Notes under the pieces: model-generated
What the model saw: only the letters and a program-made list of their open reading frames with translations
Told to the model about the DNA's origin: nothing
Database searches by the model: none
In this document: piece by piece, positions 1,985 to 13,403 of the stretch
Position numbering within the stretch: the first letter of the stretch is position 1
Layout: each line of letters begins with the position of its first letter
Assembly: GCA_002255045.1 (NCBI GenBank)
Contig: NJEE01000007.1
Coordinates: 1-23,003, forward strand
Direction: 5' to 3'
Source: Candidatus Bathyarchaeota archaeon ex4484_205
GTDB lineage: Archaea; Thermoproteota; EX4484-205
DNA length: 23,003 nt
Made by a program: the position numbers and the translations under genes

Positions 1985-2980
1985 ATGGGACATAGAAAGA
2001 AGTCGGCACCGAGGAGAGGGTCCTTAGGATTCAGACCTAGGGCTAGAAAGAAGTATCCAGTTCCACGAATCAAATTTTGGCCAGAGGTAGATGGAGCTCC
2101 ACGGCCTCTCGGATTTGCAGGATACAAGGCAGGCATGGCACATATGTATGTGTTAGAGGATAACGAGGATTCAAGGTGGTATGGCAAGGAAGTGTTCGTA
2201 CCAATTACGATAATCGATACACCCCCTTTAACTGTTCTCGCCATAAGAGCCTATGAAAAAACTCCCGAAGGACTTAGGAGCCTTTGTGAAGTGTGGGCAA
2301 AGGACATACCGGAGGATGTGAAAAGGAGACATAGGACGGCATCCACCTCAAAGATTAAACCCGAAGATATGAAGAAATTAATCGATAGGATAAGTGTGAT
2401 ACGGGCTATAGTATCCACAAATTCAAGGAAAGCGGGTATCCGAAAGAAGAAACCTGAGATTTTTGAAATAGAAATAGGGGGAGGAACGGTGGAGGAGAGA
2501 GTTAACTATGCTTTGGACATACTTGGGAAGGAGGTAAATGTAGATGAAGTGTTTAAGGAGGGAGAGTATGTTGATGTATTCTCCATCACGAAGGGAAAGG
2601 GTTTCGCTGGCGCAGTGAAAAGGTTTCATGTAAAGATATTAGATAGGAAATCAAATAAAACAAGAAGAGGAGTGGCTTGCATCGGGCCTTGGAAGCCCAC
2701 AGCAGTAATGTATACAGTACCTCGTCCAGGCCAACTTGGATACTGGCAGAGAATGGTGAGGAACTTGAGGGTCATGAAGATAGGTGACAATGGGAAGGAA
2801 GAGGCTACTGTGAAGGGTGGATTCCTTAGGTATGGAGTGGTTCCAGGAAAGTATGTGATGATTTCAGGAAGTGTACCGGGGCCTGCCAAGAGACTTGTGA
2901 AAATAAGGGTTTCAGCCAGAAAACTGGGAGTAGTTAAACCACCCCAAATAACAGGCATTGTTTTGGCAAGTCAGCAGTAA
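1985..2980 (+). CDS. rpl3: 50S ribosomal protein uL3
   Basis: 331 aa. The N-terminus MGHRKKSAPRRGSLGFRPRARK and the motif FAGAVKRFH...GPWKP are characteristic of archaeal L3. Confidence 0.97.
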   Translation: MGHRKKSAPRRGSLGFRPRARKKYPVPRIKFWPEVDGAPRPLGFAGYKAGMAHMYVLEDNEDSRWYGKEVFVPITIIDTPPLTVLAIRAYEKTPEGLRSLCEVWAKDIPEDVKRRHRTASTSKIKPEDMKKLIDRISVIRAIVSTNSRKAGIRKKKPEIFEIEIGGGTVEERVNYALDILGKEVNVDEVFKEGEYVDVFSITKGKGFAGAVKRFHVKILDRKSNKTRRGVACIGPWKPTAVMYTVPRPGQLGYWQRMVRNLRVMKIGDNGKEEATVKGGFLRYGVVPGKYVMISGSVPGPAKRLVKIRVSARKLGVVKPPQITGIVLASQQ

Positions 2981-2989
2981 GGGGGTGAG

Positions 2990-3760
2990 TTGATGAGAGT
3001 ACTTGGGCTAAATGGCAGAAAAATCAGAGAGATAGAAGAACCTTGGTTCTTTAAGGGAGAAGTCAGAGAGGACCTAATAAAAAGGGTTGTAGTTGCCATG
3101 GAGGCTAATCGTAAACAACCTCAAGGAAGGGATGTTATGGCAGGAAAGAGAACAACAGCAGAATCTTGGGGAGTAGGATATGGAAGGGCAAGAGTACCCA
3201 GAGATGAAAGAGGGAGAGGAAGATTGATCACAGGTGCTGTGGGAGGGAGGAGGGCACATCCACCGAGAGCTGAAAAGAAAATAGAGAGAAAAGTAAATAA
3301 AAAAGAGAAGAAACTGGCGTTAATTTCAGCTCTCATAGCTACTGCACGAGAGGACTATGTTAGAGGAAGAGGGCATAAAATAAACGATAAAGTGAATCTC
3401 CCTATAATTATTACGAATAAAATAGAAAAAATAGAAAAAACACAGAAACTAATAGAGGTGTTGCAGAGACTTGGATTAAAAGATGAATTGGAAAGATGTA
3501 AGAAGGGAATCAAAAAAAGAAGTGGAAAAAGTAGAATGAGAAATAGAACAAAACGCAAACCGAGAGGACCCTTAATTGTCGTGGAAGATGGGATAAATCT
3601 CTATAGAGCAGCTAGAAATATACCCGGTGTTGAAGTAATGAGGGCGAGGGAATTGAATGTTGAGCATTTGGCTCCTGGAGGACAACCAGGTAGGCTCGTT
3701 ATATGGACTCCTCAGAGCTTAAAGGTTATAGAGGAGAGATTAGGAGGGATAAAGGAGTGA
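2990..3760 (+). CDS. rpl4: 50S ribosomal protein uL4
   Basis: 256 aa with GRARVPR...GGRRAHPP, typical of L4. Follows rpl3. The start is TTG 2990 or ATG 2993, after a GGGGGTGA Shine-Dalgarno-like sequence. Confidence 0.95.
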   Translation: MMRVLGLNGRKIREIEEPWFFKGEVREDLIKRVVVAMEANRKQPQGRDVMAGKRTTAESWGVGYGRARVPRDERGRGRLITGAVGGRRAHPPRAEKKIERKVNKKEKKLALISALIATAREDYVRGRGHKINDKVNLPIIITNKIEKIEKTQKLIEVLQRLGLKDELERCKKGIKKRSGKSRMRNRTKRKPRGPLIVVEDGINLYRAARNIPGVEVMRARELNVEHLAPGGQPGRLVIWTPQSLKVIEERLGGIKE

Positions 3761-4035
3761 GCAGTGAGGAAGAATTGAGATATGAGAGGATAATTCTATA
3801 CCCTTTGGTTACTGAGAAAACTATGCAAATGATTGAGAAGGAGAATAAACTTGTATTCATAGTAGATAGAAAAGCAAATAAGAAACTTGTGAAAAAAGCT
3901 GTAGAGAATTTATATAACGTGAAAGTTGAGAGAGTAAACATAATGATTGGATCAAGGGGCAAGAAGAAAGCCTTTGTGAAGTTAACGCCTCAATATAGTG
4001 CTACAGAACTTTCTATGAAGTTGAAGATACTATAA
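3757..4035 (+). CDS. rpl23: 50S ribosomal protein uL23
   Basis: ILYPLVTEKTMQMIEKENKLVFIVDRKANKKLVKKAVENLYNVKVERVN is typical of L23. The likely start is GTG 3757, which overlaps the rpl4 TGA stop (GTGA). The ORF track's ATG 3703 would overlap rpl4 by 58 nt. Confidence 0.9.
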   Translation: MSSEEELRYERIILYPLVTEKTMQMIEKENKLVFIVDRKANKKLVKKAVENLYNVKVERVNIMIGSRGKKKAFVKLTPQYSATELSMKLKIL

Positions 4036-4046
4036 GGGGTGTTAAA

Positions 4047-4781
4047 ATGGGGAAGAGACCAATTGTAAGAAGAAGAGGAAGAAGCCCTCTATTTGAGGCA
4101 CCGACGCATAGGAGAGTAGCACCTGCAAAATATCCTGAACCTTCTGTTAGGGGGAAAGGAGTAGTAGTTGCATTACACCACGATCCTGGAAGAGGAACAC
4201 CTCTTGCAGAGATATTGCTTGAAGACAACACTAGATATTTTACAATTCCTTCAGAAGGCATGTACGTTGGTCAAGAGATAGAAATAGGGGAAGGAGCAAA
4301 GCTGGATATTGGTTCAACTCTCCCATTAAGGGAAATACCTGAAGGAGTTATGGTGTATAATGTAGAAAGAAGGCCTGGAGATGGAGGAAGTTTATTTAGA
4401 GCAAGTGGAAATTATGCAACAGTAGTAGGCAGAACTGAAGAGAAGATCATCTTGAAGACAACTCGAGGAACGCAAATGACATTACATCCGAACTGTAGAG
4501 GGAGTATTGGGGTGGCTGCGGGTGGTGGACGTACGGAGAAACCATTCCTAAAGGCAGGGAAAAGAAGGGCCTTAATGTACAGCAGAGGAAGATTATATCC
4601 AAGGGTTAGAGGTGTGGCAATGGATGCAGTATATCATCCATTCGGTGGAGGAAGACATGAACATACGGGTAAACCAACAACTGTAAGTAGAAAAGCACCT
4701 CCAGGGAGGAAAGTTGGCTTAATTTCAGCTAGGAGAACTGGAAGGGGCGGAAAGAAGAGAGTTTCTAAGAGAGAGAAATAA
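4047..4781 (+). CDS. rpl2: 50S ribosomal protein uL2
   Basis: 244 aa with GRG...RGVAMDAVYHPFGGGRHEHTGKPTTVSR, the L2 signature. Confidence 0.97.
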   Translation: MGKRPIVRRRGRSPLFEAPTHRRVAPAKYPEPSVRGKGVVVALHHDPGRGTPLAEILLEDNTRYFTIPSEGMYVGQEIEIGEGAKLDIGSTLPLREIPEGVMVYNVERRPGDGGSLFRASGNYATVVGRTEEKIILKTTRGTQMTLHPNCRGSIGVAAGGGRTEKPFLKAGKRRALMYSRGRLYPRVRGVAMDAVYHPFGGGRHEHTGKPTTVSRKAPPGRKVGLISARRTGRGGKKRVSKREK

Positions 4782-4786
4782 AGAGG

Positions 4787-5041
4787 TTACTCTATTATTT
4801 TGTATACTTTATCGCCTTCTCTGACTCTTTCAACAACCTTTAACCCGATCGATTGGCCTGGGGTTGCTTCTTGGATGGGTTCATGCTCTACTTGCATAGA
4901 TTCTACCAGCTGAGTGAAGTCAGTAGTATGCCCACGGATATGTATTTTATCACCAACTTTCAAGGAACCTCTCTCGATTTTAACAACAGCAACTCCGATT
5001 TTCGTGAAATAGTGCATAACCACACCTATTTCTTCTTCCAT
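4787..5041 (-). CDS. Small beta-barrel protein resembling domain II of translational GTPases (EF-Tu_D2-only protein)
   Basis: Starts at MEEEIGVV (ATG 5041). The pattern GSLKVGDKIHIRG...VESMQVEHEPIQEATPGQSIGLKV..VREGDKVY matches the EF-Tu domain-2 barrel. It lies antisense between rpl2 and rps19. Confidence 0.5.
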   Translation of the reverse strand: MEEEIGVVMHYFTKIGVAVVKIERGSLKVGDKIHIRGHTTDFTQLVESMQVEHEPIQEATPGQSIGLKVVERVREGDKVYKIIE

Positions 5042-5133
5042 TTTATGGAAATATAAGGAGACATAAAATAGATAAATCCTTCCTTTAAGAGACAAGTTTA
5101 AAAACTAGGAAAGGAAAAAGGAATAAAGGAAAG

Positions 5134-5544
5134 ATGTCTGTGGCGAAGTTTAGGTACAAAGGATACGCGTTGGAAGAGCTTAGAAAAATGAGTATGGATG
5201 AGATAATTAAGTTACTTCCAGCTAGAGCAAGAAGAAGTTTGCGGAGACAGCCACCAGAGGAACATGTGATCCTTTTAAGAAACATAAGAAGAGCATGGAA
5301 AATTCTAGAGGAAACAGGAAAACAACCAGTAATAAGGACGCATGCACGCTCTATGATAGTTCTACCAGAGATGGTTGGACTCACGATTCATGTACATAAT
5401 GGGAAGGAATTCGTTCCTGTGGAGATATTTCCAGAGATGATCGGACATTATTTAGGAGAGTTTGCAATCACAAATAAGAGAGTGGTGCATGGGACACCAG
5501 GGGTAGGAGCCTCTCGATCGTCGATGTATGTACCATTGAAGTAG
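5134..5544 (+). CDS. rps19: 30S ribosomal protein uS19
   Basis: 136 aa with [36 protein letters not shown], the S19 signature. TTTAAAAA (5097-5104) upstream is a candidate TATA box. Confidence 0.95.
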
Positions 5545-5552
5545 GAAAAACC

Positions 5553-5575
5553 TTTAATTTTTTCAAAAATTTTCC
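5553..5575 (+). promoter_or_regulatory. T-rich tract after rps19, a possible archaeal terminator and/or TATA element for the aminotransferase gene
   Basis: TTTAATTTTTTCAAAAATTTTCC lies directly after the rps19 stop and about 28 nt before TTG 5586. Confidence 0.3.
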
Positions 5576-5585
5576 ATTCTCAGAG

Positions 5586-6752
5586 TTGAGTTGGATAGCT
5601 AAGAGAATGAATAGAATAGGTACAGAATCTGCCTTTGAGATTCTCGCAATGGCTAGAGAGCTAGAAAGAAGAGGGAAGAAAATAATCCATCTAGAAGTTG
5701 GTGAACCAGACTTTGATACACCACAACACATAGTAGAGGCAGGTGTGAGAGCACTCAGAGAGGGATATACCCATTATACAACAGCCAGGGGACTCTATGA
5801 GCTAAGGGGAGCTATAGCGAATAGGATTAAAGAAAGGTATGGAGTAGATGTATCCCCAGATTGGGAAGTAATCCCGATGCCAGGAGCTAAGCCTTGTCTT
5901 TTCGCCGCTATAATGGTCACTATCAATGAAGGAGAGGAGGTAATCATTCCGAACCCTGCATATCCGGTATATAGATCGGTAGTTGAATTTGTTGGAGGGA
6001 AAGTTGTAGATGTGGAGTTGAAGGAAGAAAACAAATTTAGAATGACCTATGAAGATGTGGAGAGAAAAATAACTGAGAGGACGAAGATGATAGTCGTTAA
6101 TACGCCACATAATCCCTGTGGGTCGGTGATGGATGAGAGGGACATAAAAGCTCTAGTCGAATTAGCGGAAAGGAAGAATATACTCATTCTTTCAGATGAG
6201 ATTTATTCTGAGATAACTTATGATAAGAACCATTACTCCTTTCTTCAGGTTGATGGGATAGAGAATGTGATAATGGTGGATGGGTTCTCAAAGACTTATG
6301 CTATGACTGGTTGGAGATTGGGATATGCAGTGGGACCTAGGGAGGTAATTGATAAAATGGTTAAACTTCAGATAAATATGACGACATGCCCTGCAGCATT
6401 TGTACAGAAGGCTGGAATAGCGGCATTAAATGGACCTAAAGAGCCGATTAACAAGATGGTTGATGAATATAGGAGTAGAAGGGAAGTGGTCTATAAAAAA
6501 CTGAGGGAAATTGAAGAATTCTCTGTTGTAAAACCGGAAGGGGCATTTTATATATTCCCTAATGTGAAAAAACTTGGAGTTGACTCTAAGGAACTTGTCA
6601 TGAAGTTGCTTAAAGAGGCGGGAGTTGCCCTTCTTCATGGGACAGCATTTGGAAAGAAGGGAGAAGGATACATCAGAATCTCCTATGCAAACTCTATAAG
6701 CAATCTAGAGAAGGGTATATCCAGAATAAAGAAATTTATAGAAAAAGTATAG
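5586..6752 (+). CDS. PLP-dependent class I aminotransferase (aspartate/aromatic aminotransferase-like)
   Basis: 388 aa with EVGEPDFDTP, NTPHNPCG, and SKTYAMTGWRLGY (the PLP lysine context). The start is TTG 5586 or ATG 5607. Confidence 0.88.
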   Translation: MSWIAKRMNRIGTESAFEILAMARELERRGKKIIHLEVGEPDFDTPQHIVEAGVRALREGYTHYTTARGLYELRGAIANRIKERYGVDVSPDWEVIPMPGAKPCLFAAIMVTINEGEEVIIPNPAYPVYRSVVEFVGGKVVDVELKEENKFRMTYEDVERKITERTKMIVVNTPHNPCGSVMDERDIKALVELAERKNILILSDEIYSEITYDKNHYSFLQVDGIENVIMVDGFSKTYAMTGWRLGYAVGPREVIDKMVKLQINMTTCPAAFVQKAGIAALNGPKEPINKMVDEYRSRREVVYKKLREIEEFSVVKPEGAFYIFPNVKKLGVDSKELVMKLLKEAGVALLHGTAFGKKGEGYIRISYANSISNLEKGISRIKKFIEKV

Positions 6753-6769
6753 TGGTGGGGCCGCCCGGA

Positions 6770-6780
6770 CTTCCACAGTT
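6770..6780 (-). other. tRNA intron in the T-loop (59/60; 11 nt, AACTGTGGAAG)
   Basis: The central helix is TTCA/TGGA (one G.U pair), the bulges are AAA and AGT, and the outer helix is the T stem. Excision restores the canonical T-loop UUCAAAU. Confidence 0.65.
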
Positions 6781-6794
6781 TTTGAACCGGGGAT

Positions 6795-6810
6795 TTCACG
6801 GCTGAAAGCT
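6795..6810 (-). other. tRNA intron in the variable loop (45/46; 16 nt, AGCTTTCAGCCGTGAA)
   Basis: The central helix is CACG/CGTG, the bulges are TGA and AAA, and the inner helix is GCT/AGC. Excision leaves a 5-nt variable loop, UGAUC. Confidence 0.6.
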
Positions 6811-6818
6811 CACGTGGG

Positions 6819-6830
6819 CTCTCGATACCT
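6819..6830 (-). other. tRNA intron at the canonical 37/38 position (12 nt, AGGTATCGAGAG)
   Basis: The central 4-bp helix is CTCG/CGAG. The 3' bulge is AGC and the outer helix is the anticodon stem. Cutting 2 nt 3' of each central-helix strand leaves a 7-nt anticodon loop. Confidence 0.75.
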
Positions 6831-6847
6831 CCCGAGCCACGCAGCCT

Positions 6848-6881
6848 ATCTGAGGTTATAGACCAGATTGACCGAATTTCT
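6848..6881 (-). other. Two tentative D-loop introns (6868-6881, 14 nt, AGAAATTCGGTCAA; 6848-6860, 13 nt, TATAACCTCAGAT)
   Basis: The 5' quarter of the gene is 27 nt too long. Removing these two segments gives a standard D-loop, AGUCUGGUCA, with G18, G19 and A21. The helices are weak (GGCT/GGTC with two G.U pairs, and CTGG/TCAG), so the boundaries are uncertain. Confidence 0.4.
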
Positions 6882-6902
6882 CTAGCCCACGGCCCCAAAA
6901 CA

Positions 6903-7628
6903 TCAGACATAATACTCACTCTTAAGTTTTCCATCTGTTGAGACTATCTCGGGGATTTCACCCCAAGTGACAATATAGGAGCCATGCATTATCATTATTC
7001 CCTTGACACCATATATATTCCTTCCATATTCTATTGCCTTCCTTATGAGGGAAGGAGATGGTTTTTCAGATATAGTGTTCAAGATGGAGGTTGCTGCAGC
7101 ATCTGCTATAGATGCATTTTTCCCAAACACCGTTACACCCTCAGCATTTCCAAAGCTGAGGGCATGAGAGAATCTTCCTGAACTTGTTGAGATACCCCAT
7201 AGACGCCCTTTAGTCGGAGGAATTCTAAAAGCAAACTTTCCGGAGATAGGAGTGTCACCAAGAAGGACTCCTACGAATGTTTCTCTATCTGAAATAATTG
7301 CAACTTCACCACCATTCTCTACCGCTATGCTTTTACACCCCTTTCCACGTGCATAGCATGCCACTACATCTGAGAAAGCCCCTGGAACTGCTGCTAAGAT
7401 ACCGACATTTGCCTGACGAGCGGCGAAGAAGGCGAGTTTGATAATGGAAGGGGAATTTGCTGGCAGGTGGGAAGGAGGATGAAGAGAGAGTTTTTCTATT
7501 GGATATTGCTGGAAAAAACGATCAATTAAAGATCTCTGGTATCTAACAAAGGACTCTAACTTAGAAGGAGGATTGTCTACAACGATATTAAGATGAGATT
7601 CTTTGAGCTCGAAACGTAAGCGGGGCAT
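6903..7628 (-). CDS. UPF0280 family protein (ApbE-like superfamily, COG2122)
   Basis: 241 aa. AAVPGAFSDVV, TSSGRFSHALSFGNAEGVTV and SIADAAATSI resemble UPF0280/ApbE-like motifs (from memory). Confidence 0.55.
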   Translation of the reverse strand: MPRLRFELKESHLNIVVDNPPSKLESFVRYQRSLIDRFFQQYPIEKLSLHPPSHLPANSPSIIKLAFFAARQANVGILAAVPGAFSDVVACYARGKGCKSIAVENGGEVAIISDRETFVGVLLGDTPISGKFAFRIPPTKGRLWGISTSSGRFSHALSFGNAEGVTVFGKNASIADAAATSILNTISEKPSPSLIRKAIEYGRNIYGVKGIMIMHGSYIVTWGEIPEIVSTDGKLKSEYYV

Positions 7629-7781: not shown

Positions 7782-9662
7782 ATGGCAAGTAAAGAAGTAT
7801 TACTATCTGACGATGGAACAACAGAGATCCTAATGGGGAATGAAGCCGTGGCTCGAGGAGCATTAGAAGCAGGGGTACAGTTAGTGGCTTCTTATCCTGG
7901 GACACCATCTACAGAGATAACTATCGCTCTATCTAGAGTTGCGAAGAAACTCGGAATATATGTGGAGTGGTCGATAAATGAGATGGTGGCTTTTGAAGTA
8001 GCCTATGGAGCAGCCTTAACAGGATTGCGAAGTATGTGCGGGACAAAACATTTAGGACTCAACTGGAAGCTTGATCCCTTAGTAGTATCTGCATATACAG
8101 GGGTAAATGGAAGCCTAGTGATAGCTGTGGCAGATGATACACATCCACACAGTAGTCAGAATGCGGCAGACACCAGATATCTAGCCAAGTATGCAAACGT
8201 ACCATGCATAGAGCCCACATCACCTATGGATGCAAAGGAAATTACAAAAAGAGCTTTCGAGCTCTCTGAGAAGGTTTCACTTCCTGTAATTGTCAGATTG
8301 ACACCTAGGGTTGCACATGGAAGAGGCATAGTAAAAATGGGAAAACTACCTTATCCTGAGGCCTTTAGAGAGGCAAAATTCGAGAAAGACCCTCGGAGAT
8401 ATGTTGTTATCGCATCCACTGCACGAAGAAGAAAACCTTGGTTAAATGAAAGGATAGATAAGGTTAAGGAAATTTTTTCAGAAGGCTGGAATGAAACTAT
8501 CGAGAATGGGGGGGAATTCGGGGTCATAGCTTCAGGCGTAACCTATCTTTATGCAACAGAGGCTGTAAGAAATAGCAAGCTGAAAGATATAGATCTCCTT
8601 AAACTGATAACAGTGAACCCTCTTCCAGAAAAACCTATTGTGGAATTTCTAAGAGATCATAAAAAAGTTCTCGTACTTGAGGAAAACGAGCCGATTCTAG
8701 AGAGGGAGATCAGATCGTTAGCACAAATGAAGGGATTTAATACAAGAATATATGGGAGGGATAGTGGACACATACCAAGGGCTTATGAACTTAACGGAGA
8801 TATTGTAAATGAAGCGTTACTTAATATAATGGGTATTACCAACCCAATAGTTGTACACAATCCCGGAGATGTAAATAGAAGAATACCTTATCTATGTGCA
8901 GGATGCCCACATAGGGCGAGTTATTATGCGATAAAGAGGGTGCTGAAGAAGAGAGGTGGAGGAATAGTTTTAGGGGATAGAGGATGCTATAATCAGGGAG
9001 TACATCCACCTATAAGAGGAATAGATACATGTATATGTATGGGGGCCAGCATAGGGTTAGCAAATGGGTTCTCACATGCAGGGATAAAGGAGCCTATAAT
9101 AGCAGTTATAGGAGACTCAACATTTATGCATGCAGGTATACCTCCACTTATCAATGCATTATACAATAAAGCCAAGTTTCTAGCAGTCATATTCAACAAT
9201 TCGATCACAGCTATGACGGGACATGAACCTTCTCCACTTACTGGAATTACAGCCTTGGGGGAGGAAACCAGAAAGATAGATCTTCACAGACTTTTGAAGG
9301 GAATTGGTATAGAGTATGTGAAGATTTTAAATCCATTTTACATCAAAGAAGCAGAAGAGGCGATAGAGGAAGGACTGAAATATATAGAGAAAGAGTCTAA
9401 ACCCGCGGTTGTGGTGTTTGAATATCCTTGTGCAATATTGGAGAGAAGAGAGAGACGTGCAAAGGGAATAAAGATAGAGAAACCACAAATAGATTGGAAC
9501 AAATGTGTAAATTGCAGAATTTGCATAAATCAGACTGGATGTCCAGCGTTGGAAATAGATGAGGAGACAGGGAAGCCGTACATTATTAAGGAAGAATGTA
9601 ATGCCTGTGACTTATGTGTGAAAATATGCCCAACAAAGGCTATAGGATATAGAGGTGAATAA
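7782..9662 (+). CDS. iorA: Indolepyruvate:ferredoxin oxidoreductase alpha subunit
   Basis: 626 aa. N-terminal GNEAVARGALEAGVQLVASYPGTPSTEI, a TPP-binding region (GDSTFMHAG...N), and C-terminal 2x[4Fe-4S] motifs (CVNCRICINQTGCP and CNACDLCVKICP). Confidence 0.88.
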   Translation: MASKEVLLSDDGTTEILMGNEAVARGALEAGVQLVASYPGTPSTEITIALSRVAKKLGIYVEWSINEMVAFEVAYGAALTGLRSMCGTKHLGLNWKLDPLVVSAYTGVNGSLVIAVADDTHPHSSQNAADTRYLAKYANVPCIEPTSPMDAKEITKRAFELSEKVSLPVIVRLTPRVAHGRGIVKMGKLPYPEAFREAKFEKDPRRYVVIASTARRRKPWLNERIDKVKEIFSEGWNETIENGGEFGVIASGVTYLYATEAVRNSKLKDIDLLKLITVNPLPEKPIVEFLRDHKKVLVLEENEPILEREIRSLAQMKGFNTRIYGRDSGHIPRAYELNGDIVNEALLNIMGITNPIVVHNPGDVNRRIPYLCAGCPHRASYYAIKRVLKKRGGGIVLGDRGCYNQGVHPPIRGIDTCICMGASIGLANGFSHAGIKEPIIAVIGDSTFMHAGIPPLINALYNKAKFLAVIFNNSITAMTGHEPSPLTGITALGEETRKIDLHRLLKGIGIEYVKILNPFYIKEAEEAIEEGLKYIEKESKPAVVVFEYPCAILERRERRAKGIKIEKPQIDWNKCVNCRICINQTGCPALEIDEETGKPYIIKEECNACDLCVKICPTKAIGYRGE

Positions 9663-13282: not shown

Positions 13283-13403
13283 GGCTGCCGGCCAAAGGGC
13301 TGTGGAACCACCCGTACCCATTCCGAACACGGAAGTTAAACACAGCTCCGTCCTAGGTGGTAGTGAGGTCTTCGGCCTCGCGAAGCCTAGGAAGCTGGCA
13401 GCT
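13283..13403 (+). rRNA. rrf: 5S ribosomal RNA, stand-alone gene
   Basis: Contains the universal 5S core CCCGUACCCAUUCCGAACACGGAAGUUAA. The terminal helix is GCUGCCGGC/GCUGGCAGC. It forms a GC-rich island in AT-rich DNA. The ends are approximate to +/-3 nt. Confidence 0.93.

Follow-up and report, generated by a model that had tools for sequence, protein, structure and literature searches.

A tRNA-Pro(CGG) gene with a predicted set of five short bulge-helix-bulge introns in a Bathyarchaeota-named archaeon

The gene described here encodes a tRNA-Pro(CGG) and lies in a stretch of 23,003 nt from Candidatus Bathyarchaeota archaeon ex4484_205 (GCA_002255045.1, contig NJEE01000007.1, positions 1 to 23,003), referred to below, at its full length, as the window. 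Judged from its sequence, it is probably a functional gene in which six exons are separated by five introns that are removed by protein enzymes. At least three of its inserts are very likely introns of this kind, and there is a good chance that all five are. A first-pass annotation of the window had proposed five short introns at this place, and the present analysis supports that interpretation in silico, with each of the proposed elements holding up. The span of 6753 to 6896 and the length of 144 nt including CCA given there were also correct; the gene is read from the minus strand, from its 5' end at 6896 to the last nucleotide of the encoded CCA at 6753.

With this number of introns, it seems fairly likely that the gene sets a record for any tRNA gene, and that it does so in an isolated lineage, named as Bathyarchaeota, where bulge-helix-bulge (BHB) introns are widespread and include one in dnaG. 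The published maximum is three introns per tRNA gene, according both to tRNAscan-SE 2.0 (PMC8450103) and to Fujishima & Kanai 2014 (PMC4033280), which bears out the limit given in the first-pass annotation. The limit stated in the literature is the same for archaea and for eukaryotes. Searches of the full-text literature returned no archaeal tRNA with four or five introns, and literature searches for tRNA introns in Bathyarchaeota returned nothing relevant.

In its unspliced form, with all five inserts kept, the gene goes undetected by ARAGORN, which calls no tRNA anywhere in the window, while Rfam reports for the window only a 5S rRNA at the gathering threshold and nothing tRNA-like at the locus even at E<=10. 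Excision of the five inserts leaves 78 nt (GGGGCCGTGGGCTAGTCTGGTCAGGCTGCGTGGCTCGGGCCCACGTGATCCCCGGTTCAAATCCGGGCGGCCCCACCA), which ARAGORN recognizes as tRNA-Pro(cgg) with a canonical cloverleaf. The response of the program depends on which inserts are left in place. When the anticodon-loop insert alone is kept, a tRNA-Pro with a 12-nt intron is reported, and the forms that keep the D-region or T-loop inserts are either overlooked or wrongly called.

The spliced product has all the features of a canonical tRNA-Pro(CGG). The acceptor (GGGGCCG/CGGCCCC), anticodon (CGTGG/CCACG) and T (CCCGG/CCGGG) stems, which had been described as intact, are all perfectly paired, and the conserved positions U8, A14, G18, G19, A21, U33, G37, U54-U55-C56, A58, A73 and CCA are all preserved. 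Its identity is indicated by the anticodon CGG, U33, G37, A73, the G1-C72 pair, a class I variable loop, and its similarity to other tRNA-Pro genes. The six exons are colinear within the 144 nt. A split or permuted tRNA gene was considered as well, and was rejected on account of this colinearity.

The strongest evidence that the inserts are introns comes from their junctions. In the BHB rule applied here, the exon nucleotides -6 to -3 pair with the intron nucleotides n-5 to n-2, forming a central helix of 4 bp, and both cuts fall 2 nt 3' of that helix. For introns at 37/38, the text of PMC4090602 places the first two anticodon bases within the central helix, which fixes the register. This register was considered confirmed because that text, the 59/60 introns of six foreign tRNA-Pro genes, and the reading frame of dnaG, all of them detailed below, agree on it. 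A central helix with four of four positions paired is found at the exact register in all five inserts (for intron 4, after an equivalent 1-nt shift of its boundary). Among arbitrary choices of position and length, the background frequency of such a helix is 2.1-2.7%. When the introns were shuffled in place, allowing for equivalent 1-nt shifts of the boundaries, none of 200,000 trials reached five of five and only 3 reached four of five.

The inserts at 37/38 and 59/60 were placed correctly in the first-pass annotation. Both have the full in-register helix, formed exclusively by Watson-Crick pairs in the former, and both occupy sites that PMC4090602 lists as known in archaea, together with 45/46, 20/21, and 22/23. 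The site of intron 1, 15/16, was not confirmed as a published one in the text consulted. For the 45/46 insert, the proposed site and product stand, but the proposed boundary TGA|...|TC does not, since it gives only three of four pairs. The boundary TG|A...AA|A yields the same product with four Watson-Crick pairs, at the true 45/46 position.

The D region was resolved by enumeration, accepting any D-stem and a permissive D-loop pattern. Among the double excisions, 250 give a canonical D-arm, and in only 2 of them do both introns comply with the BHB rule. These two solutions contain the same intron 1 (15/16, 14 nt) and differ in intron 2. The first places TATAACCTCAGAT at 20a/21 and gives the D-loop AGTCTGGTCA (AGUCUGGUCA) on the stem GGCU/GGCU; the second places AACCTCAGATAG at 22/23 and gives the D-loop AGTCTGGTCTA (AGUCUGGUCUA) on the stem GGCU/UGCU, which has a U13-U22 mismatch. 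Both registers are equally good, with four of four positions paired and three Watson-Crick pairs each, although their products differ. In the 22/23 register, the TGGTCTA portion of the D-loop is the same as in the tRNA-Pro(CGG) of one of the foreign genes (L010). The two D-region introns of 14 and 13 nt that had been tentatively proposed are therefore retained in part: the first stands as described, and the second is one of two equal registers, of 13 or 12 nt. Two introns in the D-loop appear to be the only parse that gives a normal tRNA, with modest statistical support on its own.

Two further parses of the D region were discarded. A single excision has one solution with a canonical D-arm, which fails the BHB rule, as does a combination of 6-nt and 21-nt excisions that leaves TTCGGTCA as the D-loop.

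The resulting anatomy of the gene is given in Table 1.

Table 1. Predicted exons and introns of the tRNA-Pro(CGG) gene. Coordinates are those of the window; bars mark the predicted cuts, and numbers in brackets are tRNA positions.
Feature	Coordinates	Strand	Length (nt)	Site	Sequence and elements	Central helix and pairs
Whole gene	6753..6896	-	144		Six exons (15, 7, 17, 8, 14, 17 nt), five introns, encoded CCA	
Exon 1	6882..6896	-	15		Acceptor 5' strand GGGGCCG, U8 G9, D-stem GGCU, A14 G15	
Intron 1	6868..6881	-	14	15/16	AGAAATTCGGTCAA; bulges AG|A, AA|T; inner helix GA/TC	GGCT(10-13)/GGTC; 2 GC + 2 GU
Exon 2 (micro-exon)	6861..6867	-	7		TCTGGTC; carries G18 G19	
Intron 2	6848..6860	-	13	20a/21	TATAACCTCAGAT	CTGG/TCAG; 3 Watson-Crick + 1 GU; extendable to 6 bp
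Intron 2, alternative	6846-6857	-	12	22/23	AACCTCAGATAG	GTCT/AGAT
Exon 3	6831..6847	-	17		A21, D-stem 3' strand, G26, anticodon stem CGTGG, loop CTCGGG (anticodon CGG, G37)	
Intron 3	6819..6830	-	12	37/38 (canonical)	AGGTATCGAGAG; bulges GG|A, AG|C; outer helix = anticodon stem	CTCG(32-35)/CGAG; 4 Watson-Crick
Exon 4 (micro-exon)	6811..6818	-	8		CCCACGTG; C38, anticodon stem 3' strand, U44 G45	
Intron 4	6795..6810	-	16	45/46	AGCTTTCAGCCGTGAA; 3-nt bulges TG|A, AA|A; inner helix GCT/AGC	CACG(40-43)/CGTG; 4 Watson-Crick
Exon 5	6781..6794	-	14		A46 U47 C48, T-stem CCCGG, T-loop TTCAAA	
Intron 5	6770..6780	-	11	59/60	AACTGTGGAAG; bulges AA|A, AG|T; outer helix = T-stem	TTCA(54-57)/TGGA; 3 Watson-Crick + 1 GU
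Exon 6	6753..6769	-	17		U60, T-stem 3' strand, acceptor 3' strand CGGCCCC, A73, CCA	

In the proposed mechanism, a tetranucleotide located 2 nt before the 3' end of each intron would pair with the four exon nucleotides located 2 nt upstream of the 5' site. The endonuclease EndA, presumably of broad specificity as in other TACK archaea, would then cut in both bulges, and a ligase of the RtcB type would join the exons. The introns would have to be removed one at a time, in a stepwise manner, for three reasons. The central helix of intron 4 uses nucleotides 40-43 of the anticodon stem, with which it competes and which also serves intron 3 as its outer helix; intron 1 draws on the 5' strand of the D-stem for its own helix; and simultaneous cutting would lose the 7-nt and 8-nt micro-exons. 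Sequential removal is likewise needed in the known tRNA genes with two and three introns (PMC8450103).

Several observations weigh against this five-intron structure, many of which concern the motifs themselves. None of the five introns has a strict hBHBh' motif. Most of them lack one of the flanking helices, and the motifs are mainly of the relaxed hBH or HBh' types. In introns 3 and 5, the central helix is joined by an outer one, and the 5' site is located in a hairpin loop; in intron 4, both bulges and an inner helix are present and an outer helix is absent; and intron 1, with an inner helix of 2 bp, has two G-U pairs in its central helix. Predicted folding is also unfavorable. The conformers showing the BHB helices have energies of -37.7 and -31.5 kcal/mol, versus a minimum free energy of -60.7 kcal/mol at 37 C. 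The former shows the helices of introns 1, 2, 3, and 5 together, and the latter corresponds to the helix of intron 4, for which CACG(40-43) leaves the anticodon stem. The predicted helix probabilities are accordingly low, and that of intron 4 is near zero. Nevertheless, the canonical 37/38 intron scores equally low (0.04-0.25), and thermodynamic folding was judged uninformative because this intron is disfavored as well. Finally, randomized inserts still yield a BHB-compatible solution of the D-arm in 8.7% of the trials (p ~0.09).

Taken together, these weaknesses could suggest a functional tRNA-Pro(CGG) in which only three or four of the inserts are introns, with intron 4 kept as a long variable arm, or with the D-region inserts either processed in another way or kept as an expanded D-loop. 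A form of 94 nt that keeps intron 4 is indeed accepted by ARAGORN, which takes it for a tRNA-Pro whose variable arm is long, the helix of this intron must displace the anticodon stem, and the D-region parse combines the two G-U pairs of intron 1 with the competing registers of intron 2. Such an outcome is nonetheless unlikely. Of the five motifs, that of intron 4 is the most canonical, with four Watson-Crick pairs, two 3-nt bulges, an inner helix of 3 bp, and a position at the 45/46 hot spot. Furthermore, tRNA-Pro belongs to class I, and the six homologues have variable loops of 4 nt and D-loops of 10-11 nt. Long variable arms are a feature of the Leu and Ser tRNAs (and of bacterial Tyr tRNAs), and we know of no precedent for a D-loop of 37 nt. 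In a region with a guanine-plus-cytosine (GC) content of about 40%, the exons reach 71.8% and the five inserts 42.4%, as expected of sequence that is removed from the RNA of a thermophile. Splicing of all five inserts hence remains the preferred explanation.

The gene is found in eight sequences, namely the window and seven further contigs (L001, L002, L003, L009, L015, L016, and L017) from ENA, JGI, and Logan assemblies that represent at least five samples. Its sequence in L001, L002, L003, L009, and L016 is identical to that of the window. In L015 and L017, whose flanks are 1.1-1.9% different from those of the window, the gene has in each case one single-nucleotide polymorphism, with G->A at nucleotide 2 of intron 3 (gene position 68, window position 6829), which falls in a loop, outside the helix and the exons. 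This is the sole polymorphism of the 144-nt gene among strains with flanks that are 98.1-99.5% identical. Such variation is consistent with constraint on the exons, while being too sparse as proof of it.

These data also address the idea that the gene arose during assembly or resembles a tRNA by chance, which might be invoked in view of the metagenomic source of the DNA and of the failure of standard tools to call the gene. Recurrence in seven further contigs excludes an assembly artefact, and chance would not provide a perfect 78-nt cloverleaf with a Pro anticodon that aligns closely with real tRNA-Pro genes. This idea can hardly be credited.

A different possibility is an incipient pseudogene, a copy in decay or one that is not essential, where insertions are tolerated since a tRNA-Pro(UGG) can read the rare codon CCG. 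CCG is the rarest Pro codon in the window (10% of the Pro codons), so that the tRNA might be dispensable, and the upstream promoter signal is weak, consisting of a TATA-like element, CTTAAG, at about -27 and within the 3' end of the preceding open reading frame (ORF). However, random insertions would not each bear an in-register BHB helix, as the 200,000 shuffles indicate, and all the stem pairs of the exons and the conserved positions are intact. The gene has, in addition, stayed unchanged in strains up to 1.9% divergent, save for the one substitution in an intron loop. Decay is therefore regarded as quite improbable, and a functional gene with five introns is favored over it.

Three negative results add to the points against a functional five-intron gene. 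No EndA gene was found in the approximately 25 kb of host sequence examined. Besides the strain variants (>=99%), the homologues of the flanking proteins reach at most 57% identity for the aminotransferase and at most 42% for the ApbE-like protein, and are not syntenic. Accordingly, an orthologous tRNA with a different set of introns was not obtained via either of the flanking proteins.

Scans with a T-arm-with-intron pattern revealed six further tRNA-Pro loci of archaea whose only intron is at 59/60: L004 (locus 4721-4823), L005 (locus 7498-7600), L006, L007, L008, and L010, with L006 and L008 being near-identical copies. One of the metagenome-assembled genomes (MAGs) with such a gene is labelled Methanosarcinales. 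The six introns have 20-30 nt and all end in TGAA-NN|T, where TGAA pairs with TTCA(54-57). Like the unspliced gene of the window, all six genes are overlooked by ARAGORN. The same scans recovered one further copy of the window gene in the metagenome collection and no version of it with a different set of introns; in the genome collection, the host organism had no match to the pattern.

The spliced gene aligns with the spliced tRNA-Pro of L010 (CGG), L007 (TGG), L004 (TGG), and L005 (GGG) with a mean column identity of 88%, and no loop contains more than one 1-nt gap. With respect to L010, one pair of the anticodon stem has changed in a compensatory manner, from U-A to A-U. A covariance model built from these four foreign sequences has its sole match in the window at this locus. 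The match covers the 3' part only (17.8 bits, E ~0.05), contains an extra insertion in the T-loop, and does not place the 5' introns. When the unspliced gene was aligned with its homologues by MAFFT, the gaps fell in the wrong places, and this alignment was not used. The single-intron genes are similar to the window gene in the acceptor, the T arm, the 59/60 site, and the TTCA/TGRA helix located 2 nt before the 3' cut. They differ in having one longer intron, whereas the window gene has four additional ones and the shortest T-loop intron, of 11 nt. As a separate observation, the tRNA-Pro genes of L007 and L010, both from metagenome Ga0209080, have the D-stem GGCT/GACT, which results in a C12-A23 mismatch in the standard register.

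The closest known counterparts of this gene are the multi-intron tRNA genes of Thermoproteales. Among them is the tRNA-Pro(UGG) of Pyrobaculum islandicum, interrupted by introns at 25/26, 37/38, and 56/57 (Sugahara et al. 2007, 2008, cited by PMC4090602 and PMC4033280). These genes share with that of the window the short introns spliced by proteins at both canonical and non-canonical sites, the strict or relaxed BHB motifs, the use of the hot spots 37/38, 45/46, 59/60, and 20/21 or 22/23, the crowding that forces sequential splicing, and the fact of being missed by ordinary gene finders. The window gene differs from them in its five introns versus a maximum of three, all of them of 11-16 nt, in the two introns placed in one D-loop with an exon of 7 nt in between, and in its Bathyarchaeota-named host, which is not a member of Thermoproteales. 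Outside archaea, the highly disrupted nuclear tRNA genes of the red alga Cyanidioschyzon merolae have as many as three BHB introns each, with sites in the D-loop and the T-loop among them, and their ordered removal was shown by reverse transcription PCR (PMC3728597). The likeness lies in the several BHB introns and in the D- and T-loop sites, while the window gene belongs to an archaeon, has its exons in colinear order, and contains five introns. On the sequence evidence, the mechanism appears to be a known one, with introns packed more densely than in any reported case and in a lineage from which multi-intron tRNAs were not known.

If true, five introns would extend the tolerance known for the EndA/RtcB pathway, given exons as short as 7 nt and two or more BHB helices that clash with helices required in other steps. 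The machinery of the host would then handle dense, mutually exclusive, and relaxed BHB motifs in an obligatory order, and the gene would offer a natural substrate for the study of ordered splicing and of the limits of relaxed-motif recognition. There could also be practical consequences, as the tRNA sets of such MAGs would be systematically under-called, and the tRNA complements, completeness estimates, and codon-reading inferences of these uncultured archaea may be biased by missed genes. Together with the dnaG intron, the gene points to a possible proliferation of BHB introns in a second lineage, outside Thermoproteales, which bears on the origin and movement of these introns.

The dnaG intron mentioned in the first-pass annotation proved to be real in silico. 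An insert of 23 nt (21436-21458, plus strand) interrupts dnaG, the gene for a Toprim primase (approximately 21370-22535), and forms a canonical hBHBh' motif with the central helix GTGG/CCAC, the inner helix GAACC/GGTTC, an outer helix of 3 bp, and cuts at AA|T and TG|A. Once it is excised, the reading frame is intact again and the conserved N-terminus of DnaG is recovered, ...LFEVEGVVE-RS-DIIGAVFGQTEGL... BHB introns in protein-coding genes are rare; the cbf5 pre-mRNA of Crenarchaeota carries one. The dnaG intron is alike in kind and differs in its host gene. Its presence suggests that the same enzyme probably splices mRNA as well in this host, which is probably an uncultured archaeon from the hydrothermal sediments of Guaymas Basin, the label DOMB18 of the ENA contigs pointing to a study of MAGs from that site.

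The tRNA gene is tightly packed between its neighbors. It starts 6 nt past the stop codon of a gene for an ApbE-like (UPF0280) protein (6903-7628, minus strand), and its 3' end adjoins the stop codon of an aminotransferase gene that runs towards it (5607-6752, plus strand). A run of T5 similar to an archaeal terminator (6740-6744) follows the CCA on the minus strand. A custom scan for acceptor stems and T-arms in the window, L001, L002, L015, L021, and L022 revealed no second tRNA.

Some additional observations were made in the vicinity. The ApbE-like gene of the JGI assembly L002 has a short indel or replacement (9254-9278, against approximately 7024-7059 of the window), and is predicted to encode 219 aa instead of 241 aa. 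On the other side of the tRNA gene, in the interval 1985-6752 of the window, an L3-L4-L23-L2-S19 cluster of ribosomal protein genes stops at S19, and the aminotransferase and the tRNA come next, where L22-S3 is the usual arrangement. Antisense between the genes for ribosomal proteins L2 and S19 lies an ORF of 84 aa (4787-5041, minus strand) with a match to the GTP_EFTU_D2/EF-G_D2 domain, which is predicted as a gene in all the assemblies covering that locus. The 5S rRNA gene detected by Rfam (13284-13403, plus strand; 82 bits, 60% GC) stands alone, with the other rRNA genes not adjacent to it.

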